Part shown: piece by piece, positions 2,152-52,302 of the stretch
Position numbering within the stretch: the first letter of the stretch is position 1
Layout of the letters: each line of letters begins with the position of its first letter
NCBI RefSeq assembly: GCF_902652985.1
Contig: NC_047027.1
Span: 8,990,001 to 9,054,000, forward strand
From: Pecten maximus
Lineage: Eukaryota
DNA length: 64,000 nucleotides
Direction of reading: 5' to 3'
Position numbers and translations under genes: made by a program
Notes under the pieces: generated by a model
Told to the model about the DNA's origin: nothing
The model's input: only the letters and a program-made list of their open reading frames with translations
Databases searched by the model: none

Positions 2152-2948
2152 TGCCAACTTGCACATAACTATGCCATAGATTTTTGTGTTAGATTTTTAT
2201 CTCTGATATATCTTGTAAATTTTACATGGGATACTGCTCTGTTATAAAAGAGTTTGTGCGTACAAGACCCAGCTTGTGACGAGAGGTTTGGCACTAAGAA
2301 CACAAAGCTACTAGCACTACCATGTATAGTATTGAGTGTTTGTATTTCTGGCCAGCATCAGTACCCAGGGAATCTACCTGGGACCTCGCCTATACCACTG
2401 CTGATTATTCACAACACAAAAGCGACCATGGCTTGCTTGAGCGACTCAACAGCCAGAGTAGTTTCGCCTGAGTGACCTGGGGCTCGGCACTGGAGCTAGG
2501 TGTGACATCCCAAGCTGATGGGACCACTAGTGGATTCTATACTGCAGTTGTAGGAGATTTTATGGATGAATTTTACAGTACTTACAAAGGATATTACAGT
2601 ACATCATTAATTGGTGATACATACCTCGCAGTAAATGTTGGAATGTAGGACATTTTGTGGAATTGGTATCTTCAGTTTCTATCGGATATTTAATGGATGG
2701 ACATTTTGATGTGTTTGAGAAGCATTATTGACAGTCAGTATGATATTACAGTGGTGAATGTGTCATAGTGGCATTAGTAGTGTAAAATCTGTGAATAGTG
2801 GCCTTATTCTGATACAAGTGTGATATAAGAGGCATATTTTGTTTGGATAGAAAAATCCCAAAACAAAATCATTAAATGCAGAAGAGAAAGAAATATTCTT
2901 GAGAGCTAGTTTTGTGAGTTCTGACGTGGAATTTTAATACCTGTCGCC

Positions 2949-3057
2949 ATGGGCACCAAGTTTTCACGCCTTGTTGAGGTTGTAAATAAGGCACGAAACC
3001 AAAGGAACAATTCAACATCTAGAATCCCTCCATCGGAGAGCTCTGCCAGTACAGCAG
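2949..3057 (+). CDS. SPA17: Candidate (alternative) first coding exon, MGTKFSRLVEVVNKARNQRNNSTSRIPPSESSASTA, with N-myristoylation consensus MGxxxS
   Basis: Strong Kozak gtcgccATGG; open frame to donor CAG|GTAGGG in phase 1, which matches the phase-1 acceptor of the next exon. Confidence 0.7.
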
Positions 3058-4750
3058 GTAGGGTCACAGGTCACAGGGTCATTTTGTAAAGGTCATAGAA
3101 CATTGATGAAATCACAAGGTTGGAGGATAAAGGTCATGTAGAATAGACGAAAGCATGCAGGGTCATTGATCCTTGGGTTGTTTGTAATCATTGAGAGTTA
3201 CTTCCAAACAGCCATGTTAAATGTTATAGGAGCATGTGTAAAGGTCACACTATCCCCTAATGTAAAGGCCACATCTTTGATGATGCCAAAGAGATCAGTC
3301 TTCATGTAATTTGTTCCTGTAAAGATATTCATAAAGCTATAATTTAAAGTCATCACTTTTATGATCAGAACGTCATGAGGTTGAAGATATGATGGGTGTA
3401 ATTATGGGTCGTAATATCATAGGGTTGACCTATAGAATGAGGGATGGTCTTACAAGTAAAAACCTCTACAACATACAGACATCATTGTCTGGGAATATGA
3501 AGGGTGTTAGAGGTTGAACCTGGATGTCAGCTTTATGTACAGAATGGGTGATAGCCTTTCAAAATAAAACCCTGTCCCACGTACAGCACTAAGGTATTCA
3601 TTGATCCCACACTGTGGCTGAGCGTCATACAGGTTGTGTCGGATCAATGCCAGACCCCACTGTCAGGAACGTTTTACCTCGTGCTGACAGAATAAAAAGG
3701 ATGGCTGCCACTTCCTGTTAAAATATTTCAAATTGTCTTCATCACAGCATTGATCTGCTGAATCATTCAACAGTTTTCACAGGGTGTTCAGGACTTTTTC
3801 TGATGGCCTTTTGGGGGGTGGGGCCAAGATTGAGCCCCAGTTTTCCAACTGAAATATATTTAAGTCTGAAATTAATTTGCTCCTGGAAATGTCCTTTTCT
3901 CCTTTCACCAATTGGATAAGTTTAGACAAAAAAGACTCCATCGCAATTGTCTGAAGAGTAATATCCTACTATAGTTTTACATGTAAATGTGCACTGTATA
4001 TATATAAGAATGGTGTTCAGTGGCAATTTTTTCAAACATTGGTAACTGAGTAGTATATCTCATCACCCAACTATACATATATCATTTAAATTTAGAAGCT
4101 ACTTGCATGTGTTGGATAAATTTCACAGGAACAGTCAGAATTGTTTTAGGCAGACATGTGTGACGATATAAATAATGCTAGCTAGGAGTATAGATATTGG
4201 TCCTGTACTGATGCCAGGGTGTATTGATTAAAGGGCCTGGCTACTACTTCCTACTGAAGCTGGCTGTTTCCTAGACCAGCCTGCATGTCATGTATAACGG
4301 CAATCATGTGTGAAGTGTTTGATTTTTTACTGTCCAGCTTTTTATGCCTCTGTAGCCATCCCCCTCAATTAAATGTTTGTCGAAACCAATTACTCTTGTT
4401 AGAGTTCAAACATATTGGTTTTTATCTGTCAGTGACCTGATTGATTGATGTGGTGGCGTCGCAGAGCGGTCTGATCAGGGATAGGAAGGAAGTGAAAAAA
4501 CAAATGAGGGAAAAAATAAAATGAAAAAGTGCTTATAAGGCAGGTTTCTTTTTTGAGAACTTTATGTTAAAGTACTAATGGGAGATGATTTATGAATAAT
4601 AATAAGTATATGTTACACACAGAACACTCACTAGTAAGAATAACCAGAGCACTGGCTCACTAATAAATCATCGTCGTCATCGTCGTTGTCGTCGTCTTCA
4701 TTTAAATGATAAAAAAATAAGTCACTATTGTTTATTTTTCTGTTTGACAG

Positions 4751-4821
4751 AGACCGGCCATGATCCTGCTGTCCATGGCGCTCGAATGGAGGATCGGTTC
4801 TACAATAATGACGCCTTCAGG
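4751..4821 (+). CDS. SPA17: Sp17 conserved central exon (E)TGHDPAVHGARMEDRFYNNDAFR
   Basis: Acceptor tttttctgtttgacag, donor AGG|GTATGT. Translation closely resembles vertebrate Sp17 FDPAEWGSKVEDRFYNNHAF (recalled, not searched). Confidence 0.92.
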
Positions 4822-15017: not shown

Positions 15018-15196
15018 TCGCCAGGTGTAGACAGTGGAGATCCTCAACAACAAGATGCTGCCCTCAAAATCCAGACAGAATACCGCAGACACTCTGCCAA
15101 AAAGGAAGTGGATGGCATGCGCGAGGAGGATGCTGCCACGACCATCCAAGCTGGGGTCAGAGGTCACCAGGACAGACAGAAAGTTGATGAAATGAA
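15018..15196 (+). CDS. SPA17: Exon with two IQ motifs: SPGVDSGDPQQQDAALKIQTEYRRHSAKKEVDGMREEDAATTIQAGVRGHQDRQKVDEM
   Basis: Acceptor tttgtag, donor AA|GTAAGT; phase 0 to phase 2. Confidence 0.9.
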
Positions 15197-15625
15197 GTAA
15201 GTACACTAATGACAGCAAAGTTAAAAGGTTATATGGGGTCAAAGGTCACCAGGAAAGACAGAAAGTTGATGAAATGAAGTAAGTACACTAATAACAACAA
15301 AGTTCAAAGGTTATTTGGGGTTAGAGGTCATAAGATTAGACAGAAGCTGGAAGAGATAAAGTAAGTTACACTAGTTACAACAGAGTTAAAAGGTCGAATG
15401 GGGTCAGAGGTCATCAGAACAGACAGAAAGTGGAAGAGATGAAGTTAGTTAAACTAGTGACAACAGAGTGAAAAGGTTGGGTCAGAGGTCACTAAAATAG
15501 ATGCAAGATGGAAGAGGTTTAATGGCACTTTAGTGACCAGCTGAGATAAAAGGTCATTTTGTACCAAAGGTCACCAGGTCAAACAGAAGCTTGATGTGAT
15601 GAAGTAAAATCCACAATTGACAACA
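15152..15625. repeat. ~82-bp degenerate tandem repeat spanning the exon-3 3' end and donor
   Basis: GGGGTCAGAGGTCA...ACAGAAAGT.GA.GA.ATGAAGTAAGT recurs 5-6 times with increasing divergence. Confidence 0.8.
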
Positions 15626-17645: not shown

Positions 17646-17778
17646 AGAAACTGAGGAGAGACTAAAGTCTCAGGATGTCGACATTAACCTGGAAGATCCC
17701 GAGGTTGAGGCTGCCGCCGTCAAAATACAGGCAGGGTTCAAAGGGTACAAGGCAAGGAAAGAGGTCAAGGAGACCAAG
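17646..17778 (+). CDS. SPA17: Acidic-IQ exon (K)[44 protein letters not shown]
   Basis: Acceptor gttacag in phase 2 matches the previous exon; donor AAG|GTTAGT. Confidence 0.92.
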
Positions 17779-18742
17779 GTTAGTCGGGTCACATGTTATA
17801 AACAGCCTGGGAAATATATTGGCTTTACTCATCATATCCTGATTGTGATGGCTTCATCTACAGAGCAGGACTCTGTTATAAAATAGTAATGGCAGCCAAA
17901 GGTCAAATACTGACCTTGACCTCGAAATTTATCACGGACAGGTAAACACAGAAAGGTACAATTGACCAAGGGTCAATAGATGACTTCAAAGGGTAGTGCA
18001 AGGTCATGTTTTGTAAGATGATCTTTAACCTCATAAGGTAAGGTTTGTATGATGACATTGGGTTTTTAAAAAGATGTATTGGTGTGATGACCTTTGACCT
18101 TTAAAGGTAAGATTTTGCTAGATCTGAAGGTAGATGTGGACAGCTTGTGCTACTTACTTGAGTTTGCTTTGTTTGGCTTGCTTAGCTGATGTTGTTTGTG
18201 GTTTCAGCACATGAGGTACTTTTGTACACCAAAATAACTCACATTTGATGTCACATTGTGTGAGGTTATCTCCCTTTATTCTACATCAATCCTACATCAT
18301 TATTTCATGGATTTCAATGTTTTTCATTGTACAGTTTACCTCAAATATTTGAAGGAAAAAAAAATATTATTTTACTTATAACTGCATGAGCATAGTTACA
18401 TTCATACATATATGAATGTATCATGGTACAATACACTGACTGGGAATTGTATGCATGCTTGATAGAGTAAACTAATTTGTATTAAAACAGCGAAATGTAT
18501 GTAAATCATATTACAACTCATGGTGAACAAAGAAAAAGTAAATATCAATTGATTACATTGATGGAAGCTGTACTGTAAAGGGAGGTAATCGATGTCTGAT
18601 CAATTTTATATTTAACTACAGTCCTGTAATATATAGATACTATATAATTATAGATTACTGGATGGCACGAACTTTATTCATAGTTTTAGTGGTAGATTAT
18701 AAAAAATAATATAAAAAATCTTGAATTTAATTCAAAATATAG

Positions 18743-18910
18743 AGTAAGAGTGAAGTTCAAGAGTCCACAGAAGATGCAGCTCAAGGGGAGACAACTGTGA
18801 CAAAACAGGAATCAGAAGAGGTAATTGACATAGACCTTGAGGACCCTGATGTAGAGAAAGCGGCCAACCTTATTCAGAATAAATTCCGCCGTCATCCCAA
18901 AAAAAAGTGA
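18743..18910 (+). CDS. SPA17: Alternative terminal exon, PEP-19-like: SKSEVQ...EEVIDIDLEDPDVEKAANLIQNKFRRHPKKK*
   Basis: Acceptor aaaatatag, phase 0; acidic-IQ module ending in in-frame TGA at 18908-18910; AATAAA at 19654 and 20366. Confidence 0.8.
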   Translation, partial: SKSEVQESTEDAAQGETTVTKQESEEVIDIDLEDPDVEKAANLIQNKFRRHPKKK

Positions 18911-21348
18911 CTGAAAACATTAACAAAGACTTGTTTTGAAATTTGCGATTTAATGAATCCATTTTCATGAAAATTTGTTTAGAATATTTGGTGCTTAGTA
19001 AAATGAATTCAAAGGAAATAATTGGCTTTTATGTTTGAATTAAATTTTTCTGTAATGCCATTTTTGGAATTCAATTTTATTAGATAAAAATAGGTAGAAC
19101 TAGAGTGCTGCCCCCAATAGTACAATGACCGGTAACTTAATCTGTATAGTATATAACTGTACTGTCTTCTTTAGCTGGTCTGGGAATCAAATCATTGTAG
19201 AGGTCAGTCATGTCGGTTTGTAAAAAGGAAATCTTGAATATAGTAAGTGAGGATCAACTTCAAGTTAGAAAAGAGCCAAACAAATGAGAACTCTTCATCC
19301 TTAGAGGTACATTATAGTGCAGGGTCACTCTACCTTAAGTGTAATTATTTGGAGTTTAAGTGCCCCAGTATAACATAACTCCCTATTGACATATCAAAAA
19401 TATATGATATTCATGTGTACGGCCATTCATTTAAGTGGACATCATTGGTCTAGTTTGCTGGATAACAGGACTATGTTGTGATACCTAGTCATTATAACTA
19501 AAGGCTCAGCCAGCGGGAGTCATTACTCTGATAGGTTAATACAGTACCCTAGAGGAAACAGTACTGTAGTTCTGAATAGGATATTCTGGTGGTGCATCAC
19601 ATAGGACCAATTACTGTTTTATAAGTTAGACCAAGCAGTGGTAGAAACTCCCTAATAAACACACTCCTACTGTTAGCAGGCAGCCATTTCATCACTTGTT
19701 GATTTTTGGAATGATTCCAAATTTGCACCCTTCATCCAAAATTACCTTTATTGTGGGAAAAAATGGCACATTTATACATTTCATGGAATTTATAGCTATT
19801 TTATTATAGAAAAATGTAAAATATCATTTTTCATAGGAGTTGTTGGGTAGTAGAGAGGTGGGATGTAGATGGGAGTCTTATACATTTTTCAGAAATGTTT
19901 TGTATTGCCATTCAGAATAGGTATTGGGCAGTGTGCATTAATTTGTTAAACTGTCCCGGGTACACATGTACACATATATGACACCCTGTGTATTACCTGG
20001 GCTAACTTGTGGAAACAATGAATTACAGATTAGATGATTTAATAATGCTTTAAATCTTGTACTGATGTAAACTATTTCGGCACAGTTAGGGGGGGGGGGT
20101 CAAGATTTTATGGGGGGGATCAATATTTTATGCATAAAATACTGACCCGGGTCGGTATTTCATGGGGATCAGAATTTTATAGGACACCGGTACATTCAAA
20201 CCACTCTTTGTTTTTCCATAACAATTGAATATGATGCAGTCATCAAATAATCAAATTCTGTGTAAATCTTGTTATTTATTGAATTTCAACTCTATAATTT
20301 AACTATGTAATATACTGGTTATAATAACTTCCATGGGATATTGATTGATTAAAGTTTTCAGCAGTAATAAAGTTTTACTGATAATTTGTGTCTAAATTCA
20401 GGGTTCAATGTCAAGAGTACTCCCCTTATATAGGAAGGGTTAATTGACAGGTAGATGACTTGATTGAATAGGAAATGAAACCTTTTTAAACCCATGTTTA
20501 CAAGGAGCATTCAGCAAAGAGAACTAAACATTATAACCAATAAGTAGGTCTTTAACATCTTGTTTGACCAATCAGATGTCCCGTAACATCTATCAGAATA
20601 ACAGTATACAGTACCAGGAAACATTGTTGTCAATAGGCTCTTTAATATTCATACAACAAGAAAATGAAAATGGCTAGTACGAACAATAAATTATTTAGGA
20701 TTTTGTTATCAATTATTCAATACTTCATGCCACAATCAACCAAATTTATTTAAAAAAAATCAATACTTGCCTAACAGCTTTTCATATTCGTGCAGTCATT
20801 GGGGAACCTTTAATGAATAGAAAAGTGTTTTATTATGGAGGCACTAACACATCTAGAAAAAACCTGATAACAGCTCAGTGTAGTCGAGACTCGTTCATAA
20901 CAGGCAGTACACATATCAAAAACAGTTTATTTGTTCATGACAGATTCATTATAATGAACATGATGTGAACATTGGGCACTTTGTTATACCAGATGTAATT
21001 CTTATATTTACTGTTAATTTCTTCCTGAATAATTTTTTTTTTAAAGGACAAAATGTTGATAAAAGATGTCTTCTGAACTGACTTCTTCAAAATTATGAAT
21101 TTAACATGGTAAAAAAACTACAACAGTTAGAAAAATAGCAGTTCGTCAGATATTGTTTGATCTTAGTGCTTAACGAAGACATCAGGAAGGAGTGTTAATC
21201 TTAGTGCTTAGTTGTGTTCTACAAAAAAAAAATAGATTTAAATGAATTAATTTAAGTTTTGTTTTGTGTTTTATTTGTATTTATTGTGTTATCTACAGTT
21301 TTACTTTTGAATAGGTAAAATGGAAAAAAAAACTGCATTGAAAGTTGC

Positions 21349-22057
21349 AATAATAGTTCATTCAACCTTAGGTATACAAAAATGATAGTTAATTCAACCT
21401 TAGGTATACAAAAATAATAGTTCATTCATTAACCTTAGGTATACAAAAATAATAGTTCATTCAACCTTAGGTATACAAAAATAATTGTTCATTCAACCTT
21501 AGGTATACAAAAATAATTGTTCATTCAACCTTAGGTATACAAAAATAATAGTTCATTCAACCTTAGGTATACAAAAATAAAAGTTCATTCAACCTTAGGT
21601 ATACAAAAATAATTGTTCATTCAACCTTAGGTATACAAAAATGATAGTTAATTCAACCTTAGGTTTACAAAAATAATAGTTCATTCAACCTTAGGTATAC
21701 AAAAATAATTGTTCATTCAACCTTAGGTATACAAAATTAATAGTTCATTCAACCTTAGGTATACAAAAATGATAGTTCATTCAACCTTAGTTATACAAAA
21801 ATAATAGTTAATTCAACCTTAGGTATACAAAAATAATAGTTCATTCAACCTTAGTTATACAAAAATGATAGTTAATTCAACCTTAGGTATACAAAAATAA
21901 TAGTTCATTCAACCTTAGGTATACAAAAATAATAGTTAATTCAACCTTAGGTATACAAAAATGATAGTTAATTCAACCTTAGGTATACAAAAATAATAGT
22001 TAATTCAACCTTAGGTATACAAAAATGATAGTTCATTCAACCTCAGGTATACAAAAA
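21349..22057. repeat. 32-bp minisatellite (TTCATTCAACCTTAGGTATACAAAAATAATAG), about 22 copies
   Basis: Tandem periodicity. Confidence 0.96.
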
Positions 22058-22790
22058 GTTGTTTGGCCAAGGAGATTGGTACTCTACAGATTTGAATATA
22101 AACAAGTGAATTTATATCAAATCTTCATCTTGGATTGTGCATTCTTATAAGGACCGCTTTCAAGAAAAAACATTAAAAAGTCTTCAAAACAGGTTTGGCT
22201 AAACTTAAAATAAATGAATAAATGAATATGATCAATTATATAGGGAAATATTCCCACAGCCGTTTTCTTATTTTATCAGCCTGTTGCTATTTTTCACATG
22301 TACCACTTACACTACTTGTTGTTGGTAGTACACGAAAGCCTCTAACAGCTTGTTGCTTTGGAAATAATTTATCTCATAAGTATAATGCTATATAAGTGTT
22401 GGTTTTTTTGGCCGTCATTTTGAGAAAACATTGTTAACAGGTATCTGATAATTTAAAATAGATGTCACAGAAACAGTCTGTTGTCATGTATCAATGTGGT
22501 GATGTTGTTTTGGTTTAATGTTTTATAGCCAAAAACGTTGTTATTTCTCTTATTTATTAGGTGTTTTTTATTATTCATTTTTTAATAAAAGTAGAATATT
22601 TTTCAAAATTTCGTTTTGATTACTAGAATATATATTTACGATATCCCCTTTTAAATTAAAGCAGACACCATAAGGCTGGTGGAAAATTAGTACAAAATAA
22701 CTCCCTCTACAAAACTGTTGTTTAACAGAAATTATTAACCATCAATAAAGCTGTTATCAGAGGCTGATGTGCTACAGTTTTTGTTAACTT

Positions 22791-22966
22791 TACCATATTT
22801 ATCCAGCTATAAGCCCATGCTTGGTAATAAGCCACCTATATCTAATGTAGCTCAGTAAAAGTATTAACAAATACTGTTTTATTGCCCGGCTGAATAAACC
22901 CAGTCTCTATTTTGAGTCCAAATTAATGTGTCGGCCTCCTGGGCTTATTACTGGATAAATATGGTA
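22791..22966. mobile_element. Tc1/mariner-pogo type MITE
   Basis: 27-bp terminal inverted repeats including the flanking TA: TACCATATTTATCCAGCTATAAGCCCA and TGGGCTTATTACTGGATAAATATGGTA (2 mismatches). Confidence 0.8.
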
Positions 22967-23077
22967 GTTATTGCTGTTGCTGCTCTTGTTGTCTTGTTTA
23001 CTGTTGCCACGAGTGTTTGTTGCCACTAGCTTGTTGCCACTGCATGAGTTTGTTGTGTTGTTTGTTGATTAATCAAG

Positions 23078-23185
23078 GCTAATGCTGATCAAGCTGATTT
23101 AGACCCAACTGCTAACGAAGCGGCCACTAAAATACAGGCTGGATTCAGAGGTCACAAGGTCAGAAAGGAGGTCAGGGCCAAAAAG
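23078..23185 (+). CDS. SPA17: IQ cassette exon ANADQADLDPTANEAATKIQAGFRGHKVRKEVRAKK
   Basis: Acceptor aatcaag (weak), donor AAG|GTAGGT; 108 nt, phase 0-0. Confidence 0.85.
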
Positions 23186-23244
23186 GTAGGTCAGAGTTCA
23201 AAGGTTACATTCTGTTATATCTTTGACTTTTGAGGATTTGAGGG

Positions 23245-23917
23245 AGTACATCATGTCACAGGTGTGTAAATGTTGTGACATTAGATAGAAGGGTGTACAT
23301 CATGTCACAGGTGTGTATATGTTGTGACATTAGATAGAAGGGTCTACATGATGTCACAGGTGTGTAAATGTTGTGACATTAGATAGAAGGGCGTACATCA
23401 TGTCACAGGTGTGTATATGTTGTGACATTAGATAGAAGGGCGTACATCATGTCACAGGTGTGTAAATGTTGTGACATTAGATAGAAGGGTGTACATGATG
23501 TCACAGGTGTGTAAATGTTGTGACATTAGATAGAAGGGTGTACATCATGTCACAGGTGTGTATATGTTGTGACATTAGATAGAAGGGTGTACATGATGTC
23601 ACAGGTGTGTATATGTTGTGACATTAGATAGAAGGGTGTCCATGATGTCACAGGTGTGTAAATGTTGTGACATTAGATAGAAGGGCGTACATGATGTCAC
23701 AGGTGTGTGAATGTTGTGACATTAGATAGAAGGGTATACATGATGTCACAGGTGTGTAAATGTTGTGACATTAGATAGAAGGGTCTACATGATGTCACAG
23801 GTGTGTAAATGTTGTGACATTAGATAGAAGGGTATACATGATGTCACAGGTGTGTAAATGTTGTGACATTAGATAGAGGGCGTACATGATGTCACAGGTG
23901 TGTAAATGTTTTGACAC
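23245..23917. repeat. 48-bp minisatellite with internal inverted repeat ATGTCACA/TGTGACAT, about 14 copies
   Basis: Tandem periodicity. Confidence 0.96.
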
Positions 23918-24835
23918 TAAACACTACCACCATTCAGTTTTTATAATTAACAACTGTGGGTGTAGTTTTTTTCTATTTAATTAGTATTTGTTTTCCTGTT
24001 ATATACAATTTTCAAATTTATTGATTTATCCTGTACATGTTTAAAGTCCGTTTTTTTGCCATTGCCTCCCACTCTGCCAGATCAAAGGCTAGGGTAAAAT
24101 TCCTAGGCCTATTGTGGGTTTACCAGAGATATCATTCACATTTTTAACTCGATCATGTCAACGTTTATGTGGGGACAGCTTCAGTTTATTTGTCAGTCTA
24201 AAATACATGAATAACAGATTAGTAATATATTGTTAAAAGTGTATCTGATGGTGACAATGGTTAGCTAAATAAGACTGTATGCCATATTATTTTAATTCAT
24301 CTTAAGCAGCTTTTCTTTGGATTACTTGAATTCTTAAATTGATGAACAATAACAAAACTTAACTGCTGTTCATGTCTAAACTCGACCCAAGAAGTTGAAA
24401 ATATCTCTCCTAAATAGTGAGAGTTTGCATGTTTAACTTTTTTTCAAATTGAAAAGTTCACATTTATTTGTAAAAATCTTTTTGCAGCATGGAAAATTTC
24501 CATATTTGAAGTGCTGCTACAATGTCTGATAACATGATATAAAATAGCAGTATATTTGTGTATCTGTTCTGCATTAAACAGGAACCATACTACAAAAAAT
24601 TATCATTAAAATGTTATCGTCTGTTTCCTTAATTACACCAGTGTGTAAAATTAGGAACGTAACAGTTTGCAGATGAATCTGCTTAGTATCAACATTGAGA
24701 TATCATGACTGAGAATATCAGAAAAACATCAAAGATAGTGTCTTACTGAAATTCATTTCCATTTAATCATTCTTGGGAGTGTCAGTATCATTTAATTCTT
24801 TTACGACAAAATTAGCTGACATACCAGCAAAACCT

Positions 24836-25031
24836 TTTTATGCCCCCCGGCCGCCATGAAATAGGGGGCTTATAGTGTTACCCATGTCTGTCCCAAACCG
24901 CCGCACTGCGTCCCGTCTCATCCCAATGTAACTACACAGTAGCTAATCTCTGGAATTTTAACTACTGATGTGATGTGATCAGGGTGTCAAGTGGCAGCGG
25001 GTCATTTATGTCTAACAGACATTTTCTAGTT
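24836..25031 (+). mobile_element. Short degenerate HINE-like element
   Basis: TTTTATGCCCCC...GGGGGCTTATAG 5' hairpin, gtctgtcc remnant, and 3' end ATGTCT-AAC-AGACAT-TTTCTAGTT. Confidence 0.5.
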
Positions 25032-25213
25032 TTAACAGCTAGCTTCTATGATTTCTATGGCAACTTTCAACACCACCATTTAAATTTCTGTTTTGTAATG
25101 TGTAACCTTTAAGGGAGGAAGTCGGTAGTATTTGCTGTATTTTCTGTTAGTTTGGTGTCTGATATACATATGAAAGTTCCATCAATCAATATGATTTTGA
25201 TTTTTCTTACTAG

Positions 25214-25345
25214 GAATCCCAAGAGACCAGCACTGAGGAGAAAAAAGAAGAAATTGATATTAATCTTGATGATCCTGAAGTAGAAAAAGCAGCGACCAAG
25301 ATTCAGGCAGGTTTCCGTGGCCACAGGACGAGAAAGGAAATGAAG
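25214..25345 (+). CDS. SPA17: Acidic-IQ cassette exon ESQETSTEEKKEEIDINLDDPEVEKAATKIQAGFRGHRTRKEMK
   Basis: Acceptor tttttcttactag, donor AAG|GTAAAT; 132 nt. Confidence 0.92.
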
Positions 25346-25945
25346 GTAAATACATACATCATGAGTATGTGTACCAGTGATCTGATTAATATTATATACA
25401 TCTTCTTTATACAGAATGCTTCTCCGGACTGTTTTCAAGCGAAAGGAATAACCGACTTTATATGTTGTACCTGCTTCCTTGGTAATCAATACAGTAAATA
25501 TATTAGTGGGATCAGCTTATAAACACATAAACAAGCACCAATTTGAGGTTAGTCAAGGTCACACAAGTATTTGGAATGTAGCATACATTTGTATATATTA
25601 TAATTTCAGATTACGATAGAAATAAGATTTCTCATATTTTTTGTTCTTATTGTAATCAGATTATTTAATCACCTAATTGAAAAAATTATACATCATCTTG
25701 GCTGTAAGTTCAGAATTTCCTTTTAAGAACAACACAATGCTATTTCTAATGATTATTTATAAACTTAACATTAGTGTGCTATTTTTTTTTATTTTTTTTT
25801 ATTACCAATGTAAGAATCTAGAATTCTTTTACTTTTAATGGAGATGAACTGATGAGTTCAATTATAGAGGTACTTAAGAGAGAAAGACTTGTACTTCTGT
25901 CAATTCGATAGCTGCCACATGAACTTCCAATTCACTAAATCACAG

Positions 25946-26488
25946 GGAACAACACAGACATCTGGTGGAGAAGAGGCTGGAGTATCTGATACAGGGGAGG
26001 TAACTCAAGAGAAATCAGATGAAACTAAAGTAGATGAGACTTCCCAAGAAAATACTGATGAAGTTAAAGAGGAAACATCTGATAAAAAAATAGATGAAAC
26101 TGAAGTTTCAGAGCAAAAATCTGACGAAGCTTCTGAACAAAAAACCGATGAAGTTTCTGAACAAAAAACTGATGAAGTTTCTGAACAAAAAACTGATGAA
26201 GTTTCTGAACAAAAAACTGATGAACAATTAGATGAGGTCAGAGAACAAAACTCTGATGAAAAAGTTGAGGAAACTCAGATTGAAGAAAAATCTGAAGAGA
26301 AAGTTGATGAAAACAAATTAGAACAAACTTCTCAAGAAATTGCGAAGGAAACCGTAGATCAGGCTCAATCAGAAGAAAAACTTGATGAAAATGTATCAGA
26401 TACTCCAGCTGAAAAAACAACAGATGAAAAATCAGAGGAAAAAGTTGAGGAAAGTCCTTCCACACAGACTGAAGAGCAAAATGAACAG
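25946..26488 (+). CDS. SPA17: Glu/Asp/Lys-rich disordered exon (181 aa, EQKTDEVS repeats), no IQ; read-through ends at TAG 26501-26503
   Basis: Lies within ORF 25889..26503; acceptor cacag, possible donor CAG|GTGATA; phase 0-0. Confidence 0.8.
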
Positions 26489-29400
26489 GTGATACAGCTG
26501 TAGAGTTATTACTAGTTAGAGAATCTATTGCTCTCTCTCCAAAACAAAACATAGACCAACATTCTGTATTTAACAGTTCTACTCCTCTACTACAGCGTCG
26601 CTCAGATTTTCTCAAGTTGCATATTTAACAGTTGATTATTAAATTTAACACCTTAATACCATTCATTATGCCTTTTTTGTGAAAGTCATCTTCAGCCAGT
26701 TTCTTATTTGAAATGATAGAAGGATTCTAATGATTTTTGTTTTTGTTTTCTTTATTTATATTTTCATGTTAAATGGAATTTGCAATATTGTTTTTTTAAT
26801 ATTCCTAAAATCCACATTTGTTTTGTATCCTGATTTGTCCGAAGACTTGCTTAATGAATAACTTCATTTGATGGTATATTTTACAATTGGATTTATTGTT
26901 GAACATAGGTAAAAGAATTATTAAACAAGTATAATTTACTGTTGTAATATGCACCTTGACAGAACTGACCCGTATTTGCTCTTTTCCTGGAAGCATTATG
27001 GATCTTTCCTGTATTTAATGAAATATATTTTTTCTAGATTAATATATAATGGGTTTGATGTAGATGTACCTACTCAGAGGGAGTATATATTATATAATCT
27101 ATTCTAGACACTAGATGTACAACTTTAGAAATATATCAGTAGTACTCTGTCAAATCAGGGAGTACAATTGTTTTTCTTTTTCTATACATTATTACAATTT
27201 AGAGTATTATAAAAAAAAATTAAAAAAAAAAAAAAAAAAAATTGTTTACCTGTGTTTATTTTTTCTGAATATTCTAATGAATCAAAGTGAATATAAATAC
27301 AATATTTAACAATGATAATTCTTTGTTTTATATTATTATTGTATGATTTTCCTTCTATAGTTAAGTACAAAATAATTACAATTTAATACATACGGCTAAT
27401 GTAGTTGCTAGAAATTGCTAGACGGTAAAGGGTTTTTGTAGATATTTTATAACAGATAGTTTTTCCTTTAAATTATCAAAATACTAATGAATTTGTGAAA
27501 TTTTCTTATTAAGTATTTTCCTATATACACACACAAGTCTTAGGAGTGAACAATATAATAACACCGCTTATCTCCCCTGCTCATGTATCGATCTGTATAT
27601 ATTACATCGTAGATATAAATCTACATTGGAAACAAATAACCAACCTTGCTTGTCCAAATTATACATTCCTCTACTAAACATATGTATCAGAAATACTAAC
27701 GAAGATATCTCTACTTTATGAAATATCATAAATGTTTAATTTGGTTAAATGTATTGATTTTTATTTCATGTATGTACTGAAGTATTTTTGTTTATAAGTA
27801 CATTTTGTTGGTATATGCTGGTGTCTGTATATTGATTAACGACTGTTGTAAATGAATTAAGTATATATATCACTCTGTTTGCCTGTCATTGTTCTATTTC
27901 AGTGATAGTTTAAGTTACAGCTGCTGAACTGGTGTGTTTCTTAATATAAAGTGTCTGCCCTTATATGACTCTTGCTGTTCAGAGGGCATCAAACCCTGAA
28001 AATTTATAAAAATAGAAATAGCATGCTGAAGTGTATCACCATGGATACAAGATATCATAAACTTATATAGTTTTGTTTTCAGGATCCTCCTTAATGCTGG
28101 CCTAAGAATGCTTAATCCTTTGTAGACTTTATATTGAATGTTTCATATCTTTTATTGTATTGATACTGTTTGTTCAAGCAGGTTTCTATATATGGTGAAG
28201 GGGATATGTGACAACTGACTTTGAACAAAATGAACAGTTTAAAAAAAATAGTAAATTGCATTGAATGTGGAACATTCTCTTTTTTTTTTTTTTTTTGTCA
28301 AATTGCATCAAAGTTCGGTCCAGCTTAACATGATTTGAAAAGAAAAATTTCCATATTTTGTTGAACAAAAGTTTATAAAGTACATATTGTATAATGACAT
28401 GTTGACGAACCTTAAATCTATATCAATTTAACTGCTCTTTATGTGGATGAATTAGACTTTTTGTATAATGTAAAGTTTCACTATCAATATTGCAAAAAAA
28501 TAAAGATATATAAATAGAAAACTTCTCTTAAAAATTAGAAGGTTGACATGTATGATGATGATTATAAGTATCATACACATATGGTGGATTCCAAATAATG
28601 ATGTTTTGATGTATAGTACAATAAGTAGTTTCAAACTGTGTTGTTGGTATAACCATGGTATAAGAAGTGAGTTTTTTTGTTTGAAAGGTGTTGGAATTCA
28701 AATGACATTTCTTAATGCAGTCAAATTATAATACTTGTAGGTGTATGTCACCAACAGCTTCTGTATACTATATCACAGCACTGCCAAGTATCATAGGATT
28801 TCAAAGCTTATAAAACCATATTCTCACTACCACCATTAATTTTTTTGACACACTTAAATACATTAAAATGCATGTCCATGAGACAAGAAAGCTAGACCCA
28901 TGGATGCTTCATTATATTGATAGAAAACAAAACATGCAGAATGAAAATAAGTTTTGATTTGAAATTTCGGACTTTTAAGCAGAATGAAAATAAGTTTTGA
29001 TTTGAAATTTCGGACTTTTAATAATTACCACAAAACATATCCCCATTCCGAAATATTTAATCCTTTATTAAAAAAGTATTGGAATTGATGATCAGTGTGA
29101 ATTTTTTAAAACTTAGATCCACTAAATATATAACATTGGCCCAGAATGGACCAATGTCAGGTGCCCCTCTTCATGATCCAAGCTGTATATGTCTGGTAGT
29201 TTTTTGTTTGTCAAGGAAATTTGAAATATTAATTTATTTTTATTTCATTCAGCATTAAATCATCTATGATCAGTTAATTTTATAAAGTCAATGAAGTAAG
29301 CATTTAAAAATATATAGAAAAATGTCAAAGGCCAAAGTTACTATAGAAAAGCAGATTTTCTACTGCTATCAATATCCTAAATTTTCCTCAGATTGTTATT

Positions 29401-29538
29401 GTTCTTGCTTAGATGAACTTAATATACATTTATAACACAGCTAGCTAGTATAGCTGGGATTGCCAAAAGATTGTATTTCGTGGTATTTGATTTCAATATC
29501 CATAGGAATTACCGATATTCTGTATTAACTTTTTACAG

Positions 29539-29694
29539 TCTAGCCAAGATGCTCCAAAGTCTGATGAGACAGAGAAAAGCGAGCCTGAAAAGATAGACAT
29601 TGATTTAAATGACCCTGATGTCGTAAATGCTGCCACAAAAATTCAGGCTGGGTTTAAGGGTTATAAGACTCGAAAAGACATGAAAGGACAACAG
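29539..29694 (+). CDS. SPA17: Acidic-IQ cassette exon SSQDAPK...[35 protein letters not shown]
   Basis: Acceptor ctttttacag, donor CAG|GTTGGG; 156 nt. Confidence 0.9.
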
Positions 29695-32600
29695 GTTGGG
29701 ATACCATTTGAATTCTTTTGTTCCTGCATGTTCCTTTGTAGTTTTCTCATCCCTGTAATCTAATTTAACAACTGGAGTAGCATGTCAATCCTGTAAATAC
29801 GGTTCCAATTTTTACAGGAAAGAAAATCTTAATTTGGAATTTTCCTGCAAAAAAATGTATGGATTTTTAAAGGAATTTCAGGTTCCTATTATAATACATT
29901 AGTCAGTTTTTCAGATACGTACATCTAGGGAAATAAATTTCAAAGCATATATCTTTTTAGGAATTGTAATTGTAGAATTTTAAAAGATTTTATAAGAAAA
30001 ACATAATTATTTTTTATATTAGCAAATATTTCTTTTAAAAGTTTCATTTATATTCGATTGCATTGACATACTTTTTAAAAGAAAGAAAAGAGAGGAAAAA
30101 AAATCTTTGAAAATTAGAAACAAAATATGTATAAGTAAAAGAATAAAATATTATTGAAAATTAGAAACAAAATATGCGAAAGTAAGAGAAGAAAATTATA
30201 TCAAAATTAAGAGTGTAAGATGAGAAAAAGATATGAGAATTAAAAGAAAAAAAATTCTGAAAATAAATTTCAGAAAAATTTTGACAACTGTGTTAATTAC
30301 TAAGAATTGTCTGTGAACTTACTTGTGTTCTGTTGATAGTTAGACTGACTAACCCGTGTCTGACCTGAGCATGTGATGATTTATATATATAGTATTAACC
30401 CATTCCTGATGGAAAGTTAGCTCCTAACAAGTCAACCCTGTAATCAAGATTTCTGAAACATCCATGGATATGGTAGCATAGTCACATGAGCCAAGTCCAT
30501 TATCATCTTCCTTCATCCTTTGACATGTTCAACTTCTTCTCAAGAACCATAAGACCAATTAACGGCCATCTGTGTTTCCTCCATAGCTTCATGCAAGGCC
30601 AAAGGAGTCAATTTAGAGTCATCATTCTTTAGAATTGTACATGTGAACAACTCATTTTATAGACTTGCCAAGTCCTAAAAAATCAATCTGATAAAATTCT
30701 CAGAATCTATACGGCAGAAATCTAGAAAATCATAATTTGATTTAGATTAGGTTGTAGAGTGATAGAAAGCATTCAGTGAGGCAGTGGTGGTGATATAACA
30801 GGGATGATTAGTGTTAGCCAGACTACCTGGAGTCTTTTCAGGTGTTTCTGACTGCCGACACTTACCAAGACAGTAAACTTTGATTACATAAGAAATAGTT
30901 ATGTCATCCCTTCCTTATATATTTCCCTGAATACCAACACCGTAAAACTAATCAGAGTGAAGATAAACAGAACAGCTACCTGTCTTAAAGCTATCACAAG
31001 TTGTGCTTTTGTTTTGACCAATATAACTGACAATCAGTTATCAAATTAGTCATAAGACAGTTTAAATATATATTATATAGTAAATACAACTTTTTTTTCT
31101 GTACATCAGTAAATTCTAATATTCTCTTAACTCTATCTAATTGAGTGTTTGGTAACATCATGCATGTTAGATAATAATTTAATATTTATATATTTTTTTG
31201 TGAGAGCTTAAAATTTTGTGTTTGGTAACATCATGCATGTTAGATAATAATTTAATATTTATATATTTTTTTGTGAGAGCTAAAAATTTTGGTTGCACTT
31301 AAATAAGAAGCATGATGTATGTTTGGTGTTAATTTTTTCTAATGCTGCATGTATGGACATCAGTTTTTTTGTAAATTTTGATGTCAAAAGTTGATTTGTT
31401 AATTTACATTTCAATATATTTTGACATTTTTAGGGTCCATGTCAGCATACATGATAAGATTTTCCAGTAAATGTTGGCCTGTACATTATCATATGTCAAG
31501 TATATATATATATATATGTATAACATCAGTGTTTCTATATATTGTCTTCTCATTTCTATATCGAATCAAAACAGGATTCCAGAGATAGCTTACATAGTTC
31601 ATTAAAGTATATAATTTGTGTTTTAATGACAAATTATAGAATTGATTGTTTAGTAAAAGTTTAAACTTATAATAATGCGTGACATGAAATGATTTGTCTT
31701 TATTTTCAGTTTAGTGTTGGCTAATTTTATACCTAAAGATTTTATGTTTGAATTTCAGAAATATCCTGTTGAATTACTTGCTATACTAATTATTCTAGAG
31801 TTTCAGCCATTCCTATCTGTGGACTATCTACTGGAGGTTACAATATTATTGTCTGTTTAGTGTGAATGTTTTAAGTGTATTGTCCTATTTTGTCTGTGTA
31901 TTATGTGATTGTATCAGAGTGACCTCCCCTTGTTTCCTGTGATGTTTGTTGATGCGTTGTAACATTTCAAATATAAACAAACAAATCTGTCCCACAGAAG
32001 ATATTGACATATATAACAGAAAGTTATGGTATATATGCTGAAAATTACGTACACTGCTGGCCATGTGTAAGAATTAATTCTTTCTGATTTCCCATAATCA
32101 CATTCTTGAGCTATAAATTGATTCATATTTTTTTTTTATCCCCAAGTAAAATTTTGTGCCAAGCAACTACCCTATATAAGGTAGTGTATATAGAGCCTCC
32201 TTCACGTTCCCTCTTGTCTTTCCAGCTAAATTGTCTAATTCATGCATTTCAAATCTCAGATTTTTTATACAAAGTGAGAATAATTAAATATTTGATAACA
32301 AATTTGGATAGTTGCGACTGAATTCTCATCTTTAAATTTGGATAAAGATGCAATTTATGCTTAAGAGTCCGCTTGCTATATAAGATTTTAAAGGGAACCT
32401 GTTTACTGTGTGGAATCATCAAGGCGCTGTCTAAGTCTCAAAATAGCAACAAGACCGTTAACACATTAACTGTTTAACAGCTCAAAATGTCACCAAACTG
32501 ACATACACTAAGGTAGGATTGGGGCAATCACTTCATTCTGTAACATTACTGTCCTCTGGACCGTTACTGTGTGTGGTGATGTTGTCAGTGATTTGTACAC

Positions 32601-33057
32601 CACGACCACAATAGTAATGGTGATAATTGTGGTGAGGATTTCTTATACAAGATACAATTATTACGTGATCCGTGTGGCTGAGTGTTGGCACACACAGCGG
32701 ACACTTTATATCATAAAGTGAATATTTTGGCCTACGTAAGAGATTGTTAATATTTACATGTATATGATGAGATGTGATTGAATTTCCATCTATGATTAAA
32801 ATCTATACACACACCTCATAATTTTACATGTATATGATGAGATGTGATTGAATTTCCATGTATGATTTAGATCTATACACACACCTCATAATTTGCCTAA
32901 TGTCAAATATCCTTAAGGGATGCAATAGGTATGCAGCTTTTTCCACAGACGTCAATAGAAGACTTGTTTTCTTTTAAAATGTACCGTAATCGTAGGCGAT
33001 TGACATTGTGAGATTGTTACATATTGACATGCCATTCTTATAAAGTCTCTATGGAAT

Positions 33058-33192
33058 TACACATCAGCCAATCAAATCCGTAAAGCTACACATCAGCCAA
33101 TCAAATCCGTAAAGCTACACATCAGCCAATCAAATCCGTAAAGCTACACATCAGCCAATCAAATCCATAAAGCTACACATCAGCCAATCAAA
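33058..33192. repeat. 29-bp tandem repeat (TACACATCAGCCAATCAAATCCGTAAAGC), about 4.6 copies, abutting an acceptor
   Basis: Tandem periodicity. Confidence 0.93.
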
Positions 33193-33210
33193 CTGATACT
33201 TTTATTCCAG

Positions 33211-33363
33211 TCGTTATCTGATCAGGAGTCGGGAATGCCTGATGCGGATCAGGGCGATACAGACGACATTGATTTAAATGATCCAGATGTGGCAAAGGCA
33301 GCCACAAAAATCCAGGCTAGTTTCAAAGGTCACCAAGTGCGAAAAGAAATCCGTAAAAAACAG
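33211..33363 (+). CDS. SPA17: Acidic-IQ cassette exon SLSDQ...DDIDLNDPDVAKAATKIQASFKGHQVRKEIRKKQ (neuromodulin-like IQ)
   Basis: Acceptor ttttattccag, donor CAG|GTTCGA; 153 nt. Confidence 0.9.
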
Positions 33364-34994
33364 GTTCGAACTGCACGTTAAACCGGGCTTAGTTTGTCGG
33401 CCGTGATGTCTTTATTTTCTGTGCTGGTAATAGGTGTATATTGTTTATCACTCAGATGGGATCTCTTTTTATCATTTCCTATTATCATTTTTTGTTTTTG
33501 TTTTTGTTCATAGTTGTCGGTGTGCCCATAGGTAACCTTTCAGCATGGTACAGCTTTTCATAAATACTGTCTTACTGTTTCGTAGTAAAGAGCAAGAAAA
33601 CTTTGGATTCTATATGCCATGACTTATTGTCAAATAAATCAGAGAAAATATCTGGTAAAACCTGAATCCTCACTGTTATCCTAATGATATTGGTTTTCTC
33701 TACATAGACACATTTGTTATAGGATTTTCATTCCCTGACTAGAATCTAGCTGATATGTAGCTTTTACAAACATGTATGTGTATTGACATTTTTAGCTGAT
33801 CTTGCTAAATCTATTGGTTTACCAATTTTGGCTGCTGTTAAGTTACCTTGGATCAGGCAGCTCTAAAGTCATATCGGGACATAAAAGAAAATCTCAAGGA
33901 TACAGTGTTTTCAAGGTTATGTCTCCACACAAAGATCTTACAGGAGTATATATAAAGATAATGTGACCATGTAATTTGAGCATCTGTGTAAATTGCACAG
34001 GTACTTTTTGTAGCTGAAAATGCTGAAAACAAAACCTGTATATTTATTTGCAGAAAAAAAAAATCATTTTATTTTATGCTTTATGTCTTGAAATAACCAT
34101 TGCTTCCCCTAGACATTTACATATTGGTGATATCATTCGATATGACAACATAATTTGGTGTGTTCAAGGCAAGCTTTATTATCATGGCATGTCAGTGGTA
34201 AGCCATTTTGGTGACATATAAAACCAGTCATAGAAAACAAAACTGTTTACAAGTTTTAACCCTCTAGTGGTATAGACTTCATCACCTTCCATCAAATCAA
34301 AGACATGTAAAGTGTTCGCGGCACACTTAAAGATGCTGAGGGCAGTTCAGTATGTTGCTTTGTAATTGTGTGTATACTGTTCATCATTATTGGCCGAGTT
34401 ATGTCCCTTTGAACTTGTGAGGACTTGTAGGGGACATGTTTTTAAGCAATTTTCAGTAATTGCTTAAATGTCAATTTTACTTTTTTGCTAAAGCTAAGAC
34501 AGATGATAAATCTAGCTGAGATTTCTTTGAAGTTACAAGGGCTGATGGTGATGGGTGCTTTAATTGCTTCATTTTGGTGACTTTATCTATTTATAGAATA
34601 AGGAATCATTGCTTTATGGAATAGGGACCTGTAGGATAAGGATGGCAATATAGATGGGGATAACAATTCAGGCGTGATTTTTATTGGCAGGTTGCTGGAC
34701 AATTTTGAGGTGATACTTGTACACTTGTAACTAATGTTCTCATCGTCTGGCTTCCTGTGTTTCAGTGTCATGGTTTGTGAATAAAGCATAGCATTGTATC
34801 TATAAGGGCCTGCCAAATCAATACTCGTTATACAATTTGTAGTTTGTCAGTCTGGCTTCTGTGATTTCTGACCCCCGGCGTTTCCTGGGTGTTTCCAAAC
34901 TGTGGTCAACATTGTACGTGGTAAAGTTCTATTGACCTTCAGCACAGAGTATAGAATTCTATGAATATGATACATATAATCATCGTCTATAACA

Positions 34995-36082
34995 CTGTCA
35001 TTGAAGGTTTGTCCATGATTCACCTCTAGACCTCTTTGTCCTAGTCTCTGTCATTGGGGATTTCTGCCCTTTGTTGACCTCTAGACCTGTTGGGGTAAGT
35101 CTCTATCATTGGATAGTTCTGTCCCTTGTTGACCTCTAGACCTCTCAGTGCTAGTCTCTATCATTGGAGATTTCTGTCCTTGGTTCACCTCTAGACCTCT
35201 CAGTGCTAGTCTCTATCATCAGAGATTTCTGCCCTTTGTTGACCTCTAGACCTCTTAGTGCTAGTCTCTATCATCAGAGATTTCTGATCATGGTTGACCT
35301 CTAGACCTCTTGGTGCTAGTATTTATCATTGAAGGTTTGTACTTGGTTCACCTCTAGACCTCTAAGTGTTAATCTGTACCATTGGAGATCTCTGCCCTTT
35401 GTTGACCTCTTGACCTGTTGGGGCAAGTCTCTATCATTAGAGATTTCTGTCCTTGGTTGACCTCTAGACCTCTTAGTGCTAGTCTCTATCATTGGAGATT
35501 TCTGTCCTTGGTTCACCTCTAGACCTCTCAGTGCTAGTCTCTATCATCAGAGATTTCTGCCCTTGGTTGACCTCTAGACCTCTTAGTGCTAGTCTCTATC
35601 ATTGGAGATTTCTGTCCTTGGTTCACCTCTAGACCTCTCAGTGCTAGTCTCTATCATCAGAGATTTCTGCCCTTGGTTGACCTCTAGACCTCTTAGTGCT
35701 AGTCTCTATCATTAGAGATTTCTGTCCATGGTTGACCTCTAGCCCTCTGAGCGCTAGTCTCTATCATCAGAGATTTCTGTCCATGGTTGACCTCTAGCCC
35801 TCTGAGTGCTAGTCTCTATCATCAGAGATTTCTGTCCATGGTTCACCTTTAGACCTCTTAGTTCTAGTCTCTAACATCAGAGATTTCTGCCCTTTGTTGA
35901 CCTCTATACCTCTTAGTGCTAGTCTCTAACATCAGAGATTTCTGTCCTTTGTTGACCTCTAGACCTCTTGGTGTTAATCTGTACCATTGGCTATTTCTGG
36001 CCTTTGTTGACCTCTAGACCTCTTAGTGCTAGTCTCTAACATCAGAGATTTCTGTCCATGGTTGACCTCTAGACCCCTTGGT
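34995..36082. repeat. 59-bp minisatellite (GACCTCTAGACCTCTTAGTGCTAGTCTCTATCA...), about 18 copies
   Basis: Tandem periodicity. Confidence 0.94.
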
Positions 36083-36352
36083 GATAGATATGTGTGGGGT
36101 TTGATTGTATCTGTTGTTCCTCTGTCACCACTGGGAGTTGGAATCTTTGATTACCGACCTCATTAGTAGCTGTGTTGTATCACTCTGTATTACATTTTCA
36201 TAACTTGTCCATAACAGACATTCCATGAGAATAGTAGCATTAACAAGTATCAAAAATATTTCATAATCATCGACCCAGATGGTTTTCAATTTTTTAAAGG
36301 TGACCACAAATTCTCTGGTCTATTTATCTACAGTAACAGTGATGAAGGTGAC

Positions 36353-38888: not shown

Positions 38889-39427
38889 GTCTATTGTAGG
38901 TGTGCTACTGTCAGTATACACACGAGCTCAGGTGTTTGTACAGTTTTCGATGCGTATGTTATCGTGATGTTTCATCACATTATTTTTCCCCTCGGTACGA
39001 CTTTTACTTTCCTCACGATCAATCAGACAAAGCTCATGCACACTTGGATGACACCACTTGCCTCGCGGTGCCGTCACGTTTTTTTCACCATCTTCGTTTT
39101 ACACTGTGTACCTTTTTTAAACTTTGCTCCATCAGTTGTTGGCATGTTACCGACATGTTATTCCTGTTTTGATTTCAAAGTTTTGAGAAAGAGTTCATAA
39201 GAAAATAACTTTTCATTATAATTACCATATGACATTTGAATACTTCTTTGACACATGAATTTTCAGTGTAACGTTTAACGGCAGGGTTGAGAAATCTTAC
39301 CACTATAACCATATATTGAAACATACAGTCATTTGAAGCTGTGTAGTTGAGTTTTTTTTTATCACTGTGAGTACTAGTACCGATCAATATCGCTCAAGCC
39401 TGCTAAGATACTGTACTTGTGTTACAG

Positions 39428-39607
39428 TCGGCTTCTGAGACCGACAGAGGACAAACCAACATCCCTGGTGGAGATGATAAACATGTAGGGGAGGTCGACA
39501 GTGAAATAGACATTGATTTGGCAGATCCTGAGGTGGAAAGGGCTGCCAGTAAAATTCAGGCCGGATATAAAGGTCTAAAAACTCGGAGGGAACTCAAATC
39601 AATCAAG
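39428..39607 (+). CDS. SPA17: Acidic-IQ cassette exon SASETD...EIDIDLADPEVERAASKIQAGYKGLKTRRELKSIK
   Basis: Within ORF 39419..39613; acceptor gttacag, donor AAG|GTTTGA; 180 nt. Confidence 0.9.
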
Positions 39608-40406
39608 GTTTGATGGCACATAGAGTTTTTGTCATTTTAATTTCTCTTTTTTTACAGTATCATTATTTAGATTTGCAGGACTTTGCATGAATGGTTCACA
39701 AATTAGTTACTTTCAGAATGTGATATTATATATCACACTTTTTTCAATCATTATTATCCACTCATTGCTTCATCATGTTTTAAATTCAATCTGGTTGACA
39801 TTTTACAATGCAGTTTTTAGCATGTTTAATGTTCTTTCTGATTCTTGTCATTTTCACTGTCTTTGTCAGGATCTTTTCACATTGAACCTTATATAATCTG
39901 TGCAATGACTTCTTGCAGCTTATCTAAGTGTCAAATGGAAAACATATTTTTAAACTTAAATTCACTCATTGGTGATACTATTAATATGTTTATCTAATTT
40001 CATATCAATAAGGACTTATTCCTATTGTTTCTTTTTTATTTAAATAAATATTGTAAACTAAAACATTTAAAATATCAGTTATATCTTATATGTGTTTGAT
40101 CGACATTCTATCATTATGATTGCAAATCCTAGATTTTATTGTTGGTTTACTTTCTCTCAAATGAATTTCTAGAATTTGTAACAATACTGTCAATTTGATC
40201 CTCAAGCCACATGATCTTTGTTAATCAGGGTCCAGTTTGTTTACCGTGTGATATAAAACCAAGTTTTTTAATCTGTGTTGATGTTTTCAATGCCGTATTA
40301 ATGTATTTTTGTACTTTAATAATTTCTTCGGGATATTTTTAATGTTTTTATTATATATACTAGTTTTTTAATAGAAATATTATGTACATGTTCATTTCAC
40401 TGCACA

Positions 40407-45410: not shown

Positions 45411-45515
45411 GTTTTTAGTTTTGTTGTTTGCTTCTTAACATTAAAGAACAAAATATTTTGAAAATCTGAATTTAATAAAACTTTAAATTTGAAAACATAT
45501 CTTAATGCAATGTGG

Positions 45516-52264: not shown

Positions 52265-52302
<38 letters not shown>

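Follow-up and report, generated by a model that had tools for sequence, protein, structure and literature searches.

The 64-kb stretch of Pecten maximus DNA analyzed here (NC_047027.1; the window, G000:C13:8990001-9054000 in the genome used here, with other positions given within it) is confirmed to contain most of one large + strand gene of the Sp17 family. Our analysis also confirms that the central exon of this gene is joined either to an upstream exon encoding an RIIa dimerization/docking (D/D) domain or to a short alternative one that we refer to as exon B, a choice that alters the N-terminus only. The coding part of exon B (2949..3057, +) specifies 36 amino acids, with a predicted N-myristoylation signal, a likely amphipathic helix at residues 4-16, basic residues and a Ser-rich linker. 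Its 5' leader (2449..2948, +) is drawn to the extent of the longest junction-bearing contig (2449-3054, from run X1). The start ATG at 2949 lies in the context gtcgccATGG (G at -3 and +4), and the 109 coding nt end in phase 1 at the donor G/gtaggg at 3057. A GT..AG intron of 1693 nt (3058..4750, +), skipped by the junction contigs, separates exon B from the acceptor tttgacag/AG at 4751, which opens the 71-nt Sp17 central exon (4751..4821, +), the common acceptor of exon B and the D/D exon. The two exons translate in frame as MGTKFSR...STA-E-TGHDPAVHGARMEDRFYNNDAFR, and with a TGA in the same frame 27 nt before the exon B ATG, the exon B peptide is an N-terminus. An earlier note, made from the letters of this DNA, had proposed a first exon that fits MGxxxS(R/K) and splices in phase 1 to the Sp17 central exon; its coordinates proved exact, and we confirmed the frame.

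The same note had found no D/D sequence in the window and had placed the D/D exon upstream of it. We likewise found no match to RIIa (PF02197) inside the window, and a genome profile search with PF02197 returned four matches, one of them at G000:C13:8948039-8948149 (+), ~42 kb before the window. This D/D exon (G000:C13:8948000-8948153), which shares its contig and strand with exon B, has 154 coding nt (51 codons and one further base, phase 1). Its peptide matches Pfam PF02197 with E 8.7e-14, and an intron of 46,597 nt separates the exon from the acceptor at 4751. As the D/D exon and exon B both join 4751 in phase 1, either can feed the same frame. Each has exactly one match in the genome, and we rejected a processed copy as the source of the junctions because no second genomic match was found for either exon, in a search that can miss copies. 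As a control for chance, a crude scan for an ATG, a myristoylation-like heptapeptide and an open frame to a phase-1 donor, applied to a total of 168 kb (40 kb of the upstream intron on the + strand, and the window on both strands), returned only 2949-3057.

Eight of 24 public runs (X1 to X8) were examined as assembled contigs. The junction 3057-4751 (GT..AG, 32 nt on the short side), the absence of which the earlier note had named as a refuting result, was present in contigs of four of the eight (X1, X3, X6 and X7); X7 duplicates the contigs of X1, which puts the junction in three of seven distinct data sets, from studies P1 and P3. The D/D exon was joined to 4751 in all eight runs, with its last bases as a loose contig end, and the continuation from 4821 to 15018 was found in 8/8 as well. 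Contigs containing exon B begin at 2449, 2553, 2552, 2827 and 2885, without loose ends, and these varied 5' ends are compatible with a first exon but no proof of one. Exon B is likely transcribed from its own internal promoter, which we infer since contigs cannot show a start. We did not use as evidence the contig depths at the exon-B and D/D junctions (14.7/12.5 in X1, 8.5/7.8 in X3 and 3.7/47.8 in X6), the lack of an exon-B contig in X2 and X8, or the absence of intron cover in 7/8 runs; the run-to-run depth differences could reflect exons used in particular tissues, but the parts of a gene cannot be ranked by contig depth. Contigs at 4667-4699 (X4-X6) were considered as an exon and rejected, as they lie on a short TCG-type repeat and their loose end maps to no examined locus.

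The window also contains several repeats. An 83-bp tandem repeat at 4813-5044 starts from the donor of the central exon, so that the last bases of the exon plus GT recur nearly three times as decoy donors. Long intron minisatellites occupy 271-2151 (38-bp units), 6340-12287 (32-bp) and 36350-38888 (36-bp), the first of which stops ~300 bases before the exon-B leader.

The exon-B isoform is already present in RefSeq as XP_033758759.1, under the automatic name 'titin-like isoform X2', and this record maps exon by exon to 2949-3056, 4750-4821 and 22 further blocks. Because of names such as 'titin-like', exon-B isoforms are easily missed. Six of the eight Pecten isoforms examined have a D/D start, one starts with exon B and one (P0125, isoform X5) starts at an internal Met; this Met, at the end of exon 15018-15197, is accompanied by neither D/D nor Gly2 and may be a third start. 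A word-based protein search with the exon-B frame gave no scored match among 26 candidates, a null that reflects the limit of that search, as identical proteins are present as cluster members, and the exon-B peptide alone had no match in Pfam or Atlas. The scallop protein P0123 and seven other isoforms that begin with Met-Gly and contain the central segment have no PF02197 match (Pfam, E 0.01). The best PDB matches of the oyster Met-Gly isoform, P0148, are Sp17 chains (E 6e-11, residues 32-128; Sp17/SPA17 entries 8j07, 9fqr and 7my4). The exon-B form is an isoform of the Sp17 gene and not itself a D/D protein.

To compare exon B among species, residues were counted over nine sequences, leaving out that of Mizuhopecten, which is identical to that of Pecten (36/36 residues; 1164/1457, or 80%, for the whole protein). 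Orthologous starts followed by the same central segment are modelled in Crassostrea virginica, Mytilus trossulus, Ruditapes philippinarum, Pomacea canaliculata, Haliotis cracherodii and Biomphalaria glabrata, and two further records with an orthologous start, P0231 and P0263, group with molluscs. The exon is therefore conserved in related bivalves and gastropods, the second point on which the earlier note could have failed. Gly2 and Ser6 are invariant (9/9 each), Lys4 is kept in 8/9 and Lys or Arg at position 7 in 7/9; the residue is hydrophobic at 5 and 8 in 9/9 and at 12 in 8/9, and basic at 14, 15 and 16 in 8/9, 7/9 and 7/9. Past residue 17, both the length of exon B (20-36 amino acids overall) and its sequence vary freely. 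By this comparison, the predicted lipid-signal end is conserved across bivalves and gastropods and the linker is not. The PROSITE PS00008-type pattern, which specifies Gly2 and a small residue at 6 and is permissive at 3 and 7, fits 8/8 exon-B peptides of named mollusc species.

Of the 186 stored proteins whose first 170 residues include the central segment, 169 have a D/D domain and the other 17 all begin with Met-Gly, compared to Met-Gly starts in 13/122 background matches. Fourteen of these 17 fit the myristoylation pattern; the 17 include redundant records, and forms without the central segment, such as P0125, fall outside the count. Other Met-Gly starts carry an early Cys, namely a second Biomphalaria exon (P0162), P0254 and P0307. 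The central-segment tree, mostly unresolved and weak (1/25 branches starred), suggests that P0254 and P0307 are probably non-molluscan. In amphioxus, P0175 and P0277 begin with Met-Gly and an early Cys and have neither D/D nor the central segment, and P0176 begins Met-Cys-Gly-Cys. A derivation of one first exon from the other was also considered, and the shared Phe5-Ser6 is too little to claim it.

Whichever first exon is used, the chain continues into IQ motifs. The exon that follows the central exon (15018..15197, +) encodes IQ motifs 1-2, and 15 coding exons of isoform X2 (17647..54414, +) encode IQ motifs 3-16 with acidic or Pro-rich linkers, so that P0123 has 16 IQ motifs in 1500 amino acids. 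Most of motifs 3-16 are preceded by a PEP-19-type acidic stretch, in most cases with one unit per exon. The best PDB match of a scallop IQ exon is the PEP-19 chain 2n77_B (E 0.01), and the oyster isoform matches PEP-19 with E 4.7e-4. According to PMC5122967, PEP-19 residues Phe30, Asp31, Ile32, Asp33, Met34 and Pro37 fix its acidic loop to calmodulin and make Ca2+ exchange faster. All six of these determinant classes are in register in 11/16 scallop repeats and at least five in 13/16, while in the control, the 11 longest control matches, at least five were found in 6/287 IQ motifs. As in PEP-19 (PCP4) and neurogranin, hydrophobic-Asp-Ile-Asp-hydrophobic-x-x-Pro stands at -16 to -9 before the IQ motif, in exact register; PEP-19 and neurogranin are small single-IQ proteins, whereas the scallop unit is repeated behind an exchangeable targeting exon. 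At the protein kinase C (PKC) site of the calpacitin IQ motif, Ser36 in neurogranin (PMC3589724) and Ser41 in neuromodulin, Ser or Thr is found in 7/16 scallop, 0/9 oyster and 2/9 abalone repeats.

Some features of this region are side observations on the repeats. Seven tandem Pro-rich acidic/IQ exons at 42422-47334 (+) each have Ser/Thr at the neurogranin PKC position, and isoform X6 (P0001) skips three of the seven, so that phospho-regulated repeats may be included or left out as a block. A stretch at 33211..33345 (+, end approximate) follows a good AG acceptor, has acidic/IQ coding and is in none of the stored proteins; it is likely an unmodelled cassette exon.

The earlier note had likened the exon-B isoform to GAP-43 and MARCKS. 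We found no Pfam match to the MARCKS family in 12 proteins scanned at E 0.01, and that half of the comparison fell away, while the likeness to calpacitins held through the PEP-19/neurogranin-type repeats. Pfam matches to Yop-YscD_cpl, Seipin and a phage terminator were rejected as summed weak repeat matches with no passing stretch. Judged by its sequence, the exon-B isoform would work like a calpacitin, but it is not filed as one, being a 1500-amino-acid isoform of the Sp17 gene with 16 IQ motifs. With GAP-43/neuromodulin and Drosophila igloo it shares an N-terminal acylation signal plus an IQ-bearing disordered chain (both predicted here). GAP-43 is palmitoylated on N-terminal cysteines, whereas no Cys is found among the first ten residues of scallop exon B; igloo reportedly has a described myristoylation site. 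The neuromodulin IQ peptide gave a weak match (E 0.07), and the Atlas feature neighbours of the first 140 residues of the Pomacea isoform include arthropod 'Neuromodulin' and 'Igloo' clusters (0.88 and 0.87), which are leads only. Igloo is called an invertebrate GAP43-like gene in the part of PMC6917273 available, and the calpacitin list in the corresponding part of PMC9618489 omits Sp17. Five records (P0212, P0217, P0222, P0227 and P0317) combine a diverged D/D-like N-terminus with acidic/IQ arrays and have no central segment; if they are arthropod, they would link Sp17 to igloo.

The C-terminus of the gene is modelled with a possible further membrane signal. The first two exons of the C-terminal region lie at 62409..63286 (+) and the region continues past the window (L011:487-2912). 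In the scallop and mussel models, D/D and exon-B isoforms alike, a Pex19-like region is followed by a CaaX box (CTIL in scallop), and the models of the nemertean Lineus end in the same terminal box. An Sp17/Pex19-like fusion is also modelled in Mytilus and a hemichordate, and Pfam Pex19 (PF04614) matches the Mytilus C-terminus with E 1e-16 and that of Glandiceps with E 5e-28. The scallop protein itself falls under the Pfam Pex19 threshold (E 0.01), and its C-terminus aligns to that of Mytilus with E 5e-29; a separate PEX19-like locus lies 4.4 Mb away, at G000:C13:13.4 Mb. The Met-Gly isoforms of oyster, clam, abalone, Pomacea and Biomphalaria are without the Pex19-like end or a CTIL-type box, which leaves the N-terminal signal as the conserved element. 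As a separate observation, the long IQ exon at 53776-54430 (+) stays open beyond its donor until a stop close by, and the Mizuhopecten model P0132 ends near there and lacks the Pex19-like part. The C-terminal anchor may thus depend on a choice between splicing and stopping.

From these data, we consider it probable that exon B gives the protein a predicted N-myristoylated, amphipathic-basic terminus that would hold a predicted calmodulin-binding chain at membranes instead of at AKAP or ciliary scaffolds. In the mechanism that we propose, the initiator Met would be removed and Gly2 myristoylated by N-myristoyltransferase (NMT), which favours a basic residue at position 7 (PMC7048800, in part). 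Myristate requires a second signal, for example a basic one (according to part of PMC5526564), and this would come from a helix of residues 4-16 with an F5/L8/V12 face together with its basic residues. Without the D/D domain, the isoform would neither dimerize through it nor bind AKAP helices. Since each acidic/IQ repeat would bind the calmodulin C-lobe as PEP-19 does, the chain would form a multivalent calmodulin store and tuner of Ca2+ kinetics under the membrane. A low-confidence fold prediction (mean pLDDT, the predicted local distance difference test, 57.7) gave an extended oyster model with no compact fold and a predicted template modelling score (pTM) of 0.19. Myristoylated basic termini are reported targets of Ca2+-calmodulin (PMC7216078), and we conjecture that the basic end with its single lipid may be released by Ca2+-calmodulin or by phosphorylation. 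The opposite end would gain a prenyl anchor in scallop and mussel, through the C-terminal CaaX box. Like CAP23/NAP22 (BASP1), Src and MARCKS, exon B has a predicted myristate beside basic residues, although, unlike those polybasic termini, the net charge of residues 1-18 does not exceed +3 to +5, and position 10 is acidic in 7/9 sequences.

A number of observations weigh against this membrane-anchoring proposal. Acylation, localization and calmodulin binding of the exon-B isoform are predicted from sequence only. The helix is predicted at residues 4-17 with a pLDDT of about 50, and the hydrophobic moment beats that of shuffled peptides (p<0.05) in 3/8 peptides (Pecten/Mizuhopecten, 0.03; Biomphalaria, 0.009), with p 0.06-0.37 in the other five. 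The modelled scallop and mussel D/D isoforms carry the same CaaX box and may be membrane-bound too, so in these species exon B may add a second lipid anchor rather than the first, which corrects the swap from AKAP scaffolds to membranes put forward in the earlier note. Among transcripts, X8, the sole run recorded as RNA, shows the D/D junction only; the other seven are only guessed to be RNA or are unlabelled, and tissue labels are absent. The longest leader contains 11 upstream ATGs in 500 nt, none in a frame that overlaps the main ATG, and these would hinder translation unless most transcripts start nearer. No Met-Gly isoform was seen in the partial member lists for Mya, Dreissena and three other Mytilus, or in those for three other Haliotis, Liolophura, Lineus and echinoderms. 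In addition, the queries with which forms lacking D/D were sought in sensitive searches were exon B or Met-Gly isoforms, a choice that favours the recovery of such starts.

Other explanations can account for part of these results. As P0123 and P0151 carry both a Met-Gly start and a CaaX box, exon B could switch the protein from one lipid anchor to two, myristate and prenyl, and make the 1500-amino-acid chain a tether or spacer between membranes, possibly with peroxisome-type cargo bound through the Pex19-like domain. The Pfam Pex19 matches in Mytilus and Glandiceps, the alignment of the scallop C-terminus to that of Mytilus, the separate PEX19-like locus and the extended oyster model agree with such a role. 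However, the scallop protein misses Pfam Pex19 at E 0.01, the short contigs do not link exon B and the last exons in one transcript, and the Met-Gly isoforms outside scallop and mussel are without this C-terminal end, so that it is not the conserved purpose of exon B; we regard this explanation as unlikely.

Exon B could also be a real coding first exon whose main job is to remove the D/D domain or to provide a protein-binding helix, with stable anchoring minor or absent. In its favour, the modelled isoform P0125 has neither D/D nor Gly2, and basic amphipathic helices are typical targets of Ca2+-calmodulin, which binds myristoylated basic termini and pulls them off membranes (PMC7216078, in part). 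The absence of a Cys in residues 1-10 of scallop exon B leaves no site there for a second acyl chain. Against it, Gly2 and Ser6 are invariant in 9/9 while residues after 17 vary, and the unrelated starts of P0162, P0254, P0307, P0175 and P0277 are also Met-Gly with a nearby Cys; we think this explanation quite unlikely. We find it highly improbable that exon B is a spliced but poorly translated or non-translated leader, arising from cryptic intronic transcription, with the RefSeq isoform as an annotation by-product. The leader is rich in upstream ATGs, the junction is found in only half of the runs and the peptide alone has no Pfam, Atlas or word-search match, but the peptide is identical in two scallop genera, and its motif is retained in both Bivalvia and Gastropoda and in every case reads in frame into the shared central exon. 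We favour membrane anchoring of a predicted calmodulin-binding chain as the role of exon B.

Gaining or losing a myristoylation signal through the choice of first exon is a known device. In PKA Calpha1 and Calpha2, alternative 5' exons join exon 2 at a phase-1 junction to give a myristoylated somatic and a non-myristoylated sperm form (part of PMC5526564). The scallop gene resembles this system in its alternative first exons and differs in that a whole docking domain is exchanged for a lipid signal, and in that the product is a calmodulin-binding scaffold and not an enzyme. With Sp17/SPA17, an R2D2 protein, it shares a D/D exon, central segment and IQ motifs. SPA17 has one IQ motif and ~150 amino acids, whereas the scallop gene has 16 IQ motifs, 1500 amino acids, an isoform that starts with Met-Gly in place of D/D, and a C-terminus with a Pex19-like region and CaaX box. 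According to PMC8339350, the D/D protein SPA17 binds AKAPs and forms dimers or tetramers in cilia and flagella; by analogy, the mollusc D/D isoform would behave similarly, with AKAP binding and a ciliary or flagellar location. If the last exons are used, a prenyl group may be present on this D/D form already, and the isoform with exon B would carry lipids at both ends. In the available parts of PMC7720611 (clam gonad) and PMC11276731, Sp17 is treated as a single sperm protein, and the word 'myristoyl' is absent from the available text of PMC8339350 and PMC11276731. Our literature searches, which did not cover most subscription journals, found no paper on an acylated Sp17 or on a D/D-less Sp17 isoform, from invertebrates or otherwise.

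Sp17 is treated as a small scaffold protein of sperm and cilia. For GAP-43, neurogranin and PEP-19, the calmodulin buffers of neurons, both the origin and the counterparts in invertebrates are poorly defined. One tentative reading, which we hold to be possible but doubtful, is that Sp17 is the ancestral animal calpacitin gene, a single locus whose D/D form serves cilia and sperm and whose alternative first exons yield N-acylated acidic/IQ forms that serve the membranes of neurons or other cells, and that igloo, GAP-43, neurogranin and PEP-19 would descend from the acylated forms or have taken over their job. Such a history would fit the acylation-type starts on D/D-less forms in molluscs, two non-mollusc-like records and amphioxus, together with the PEP-19 determinants in register. 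The exon switch provides a mollusc candidate for the role of the neuronal calmodulin buffers, including in the gastropods of neurobiology, and isoform-specific probes, together with the one substitution G2A, make this candidate role open to test.
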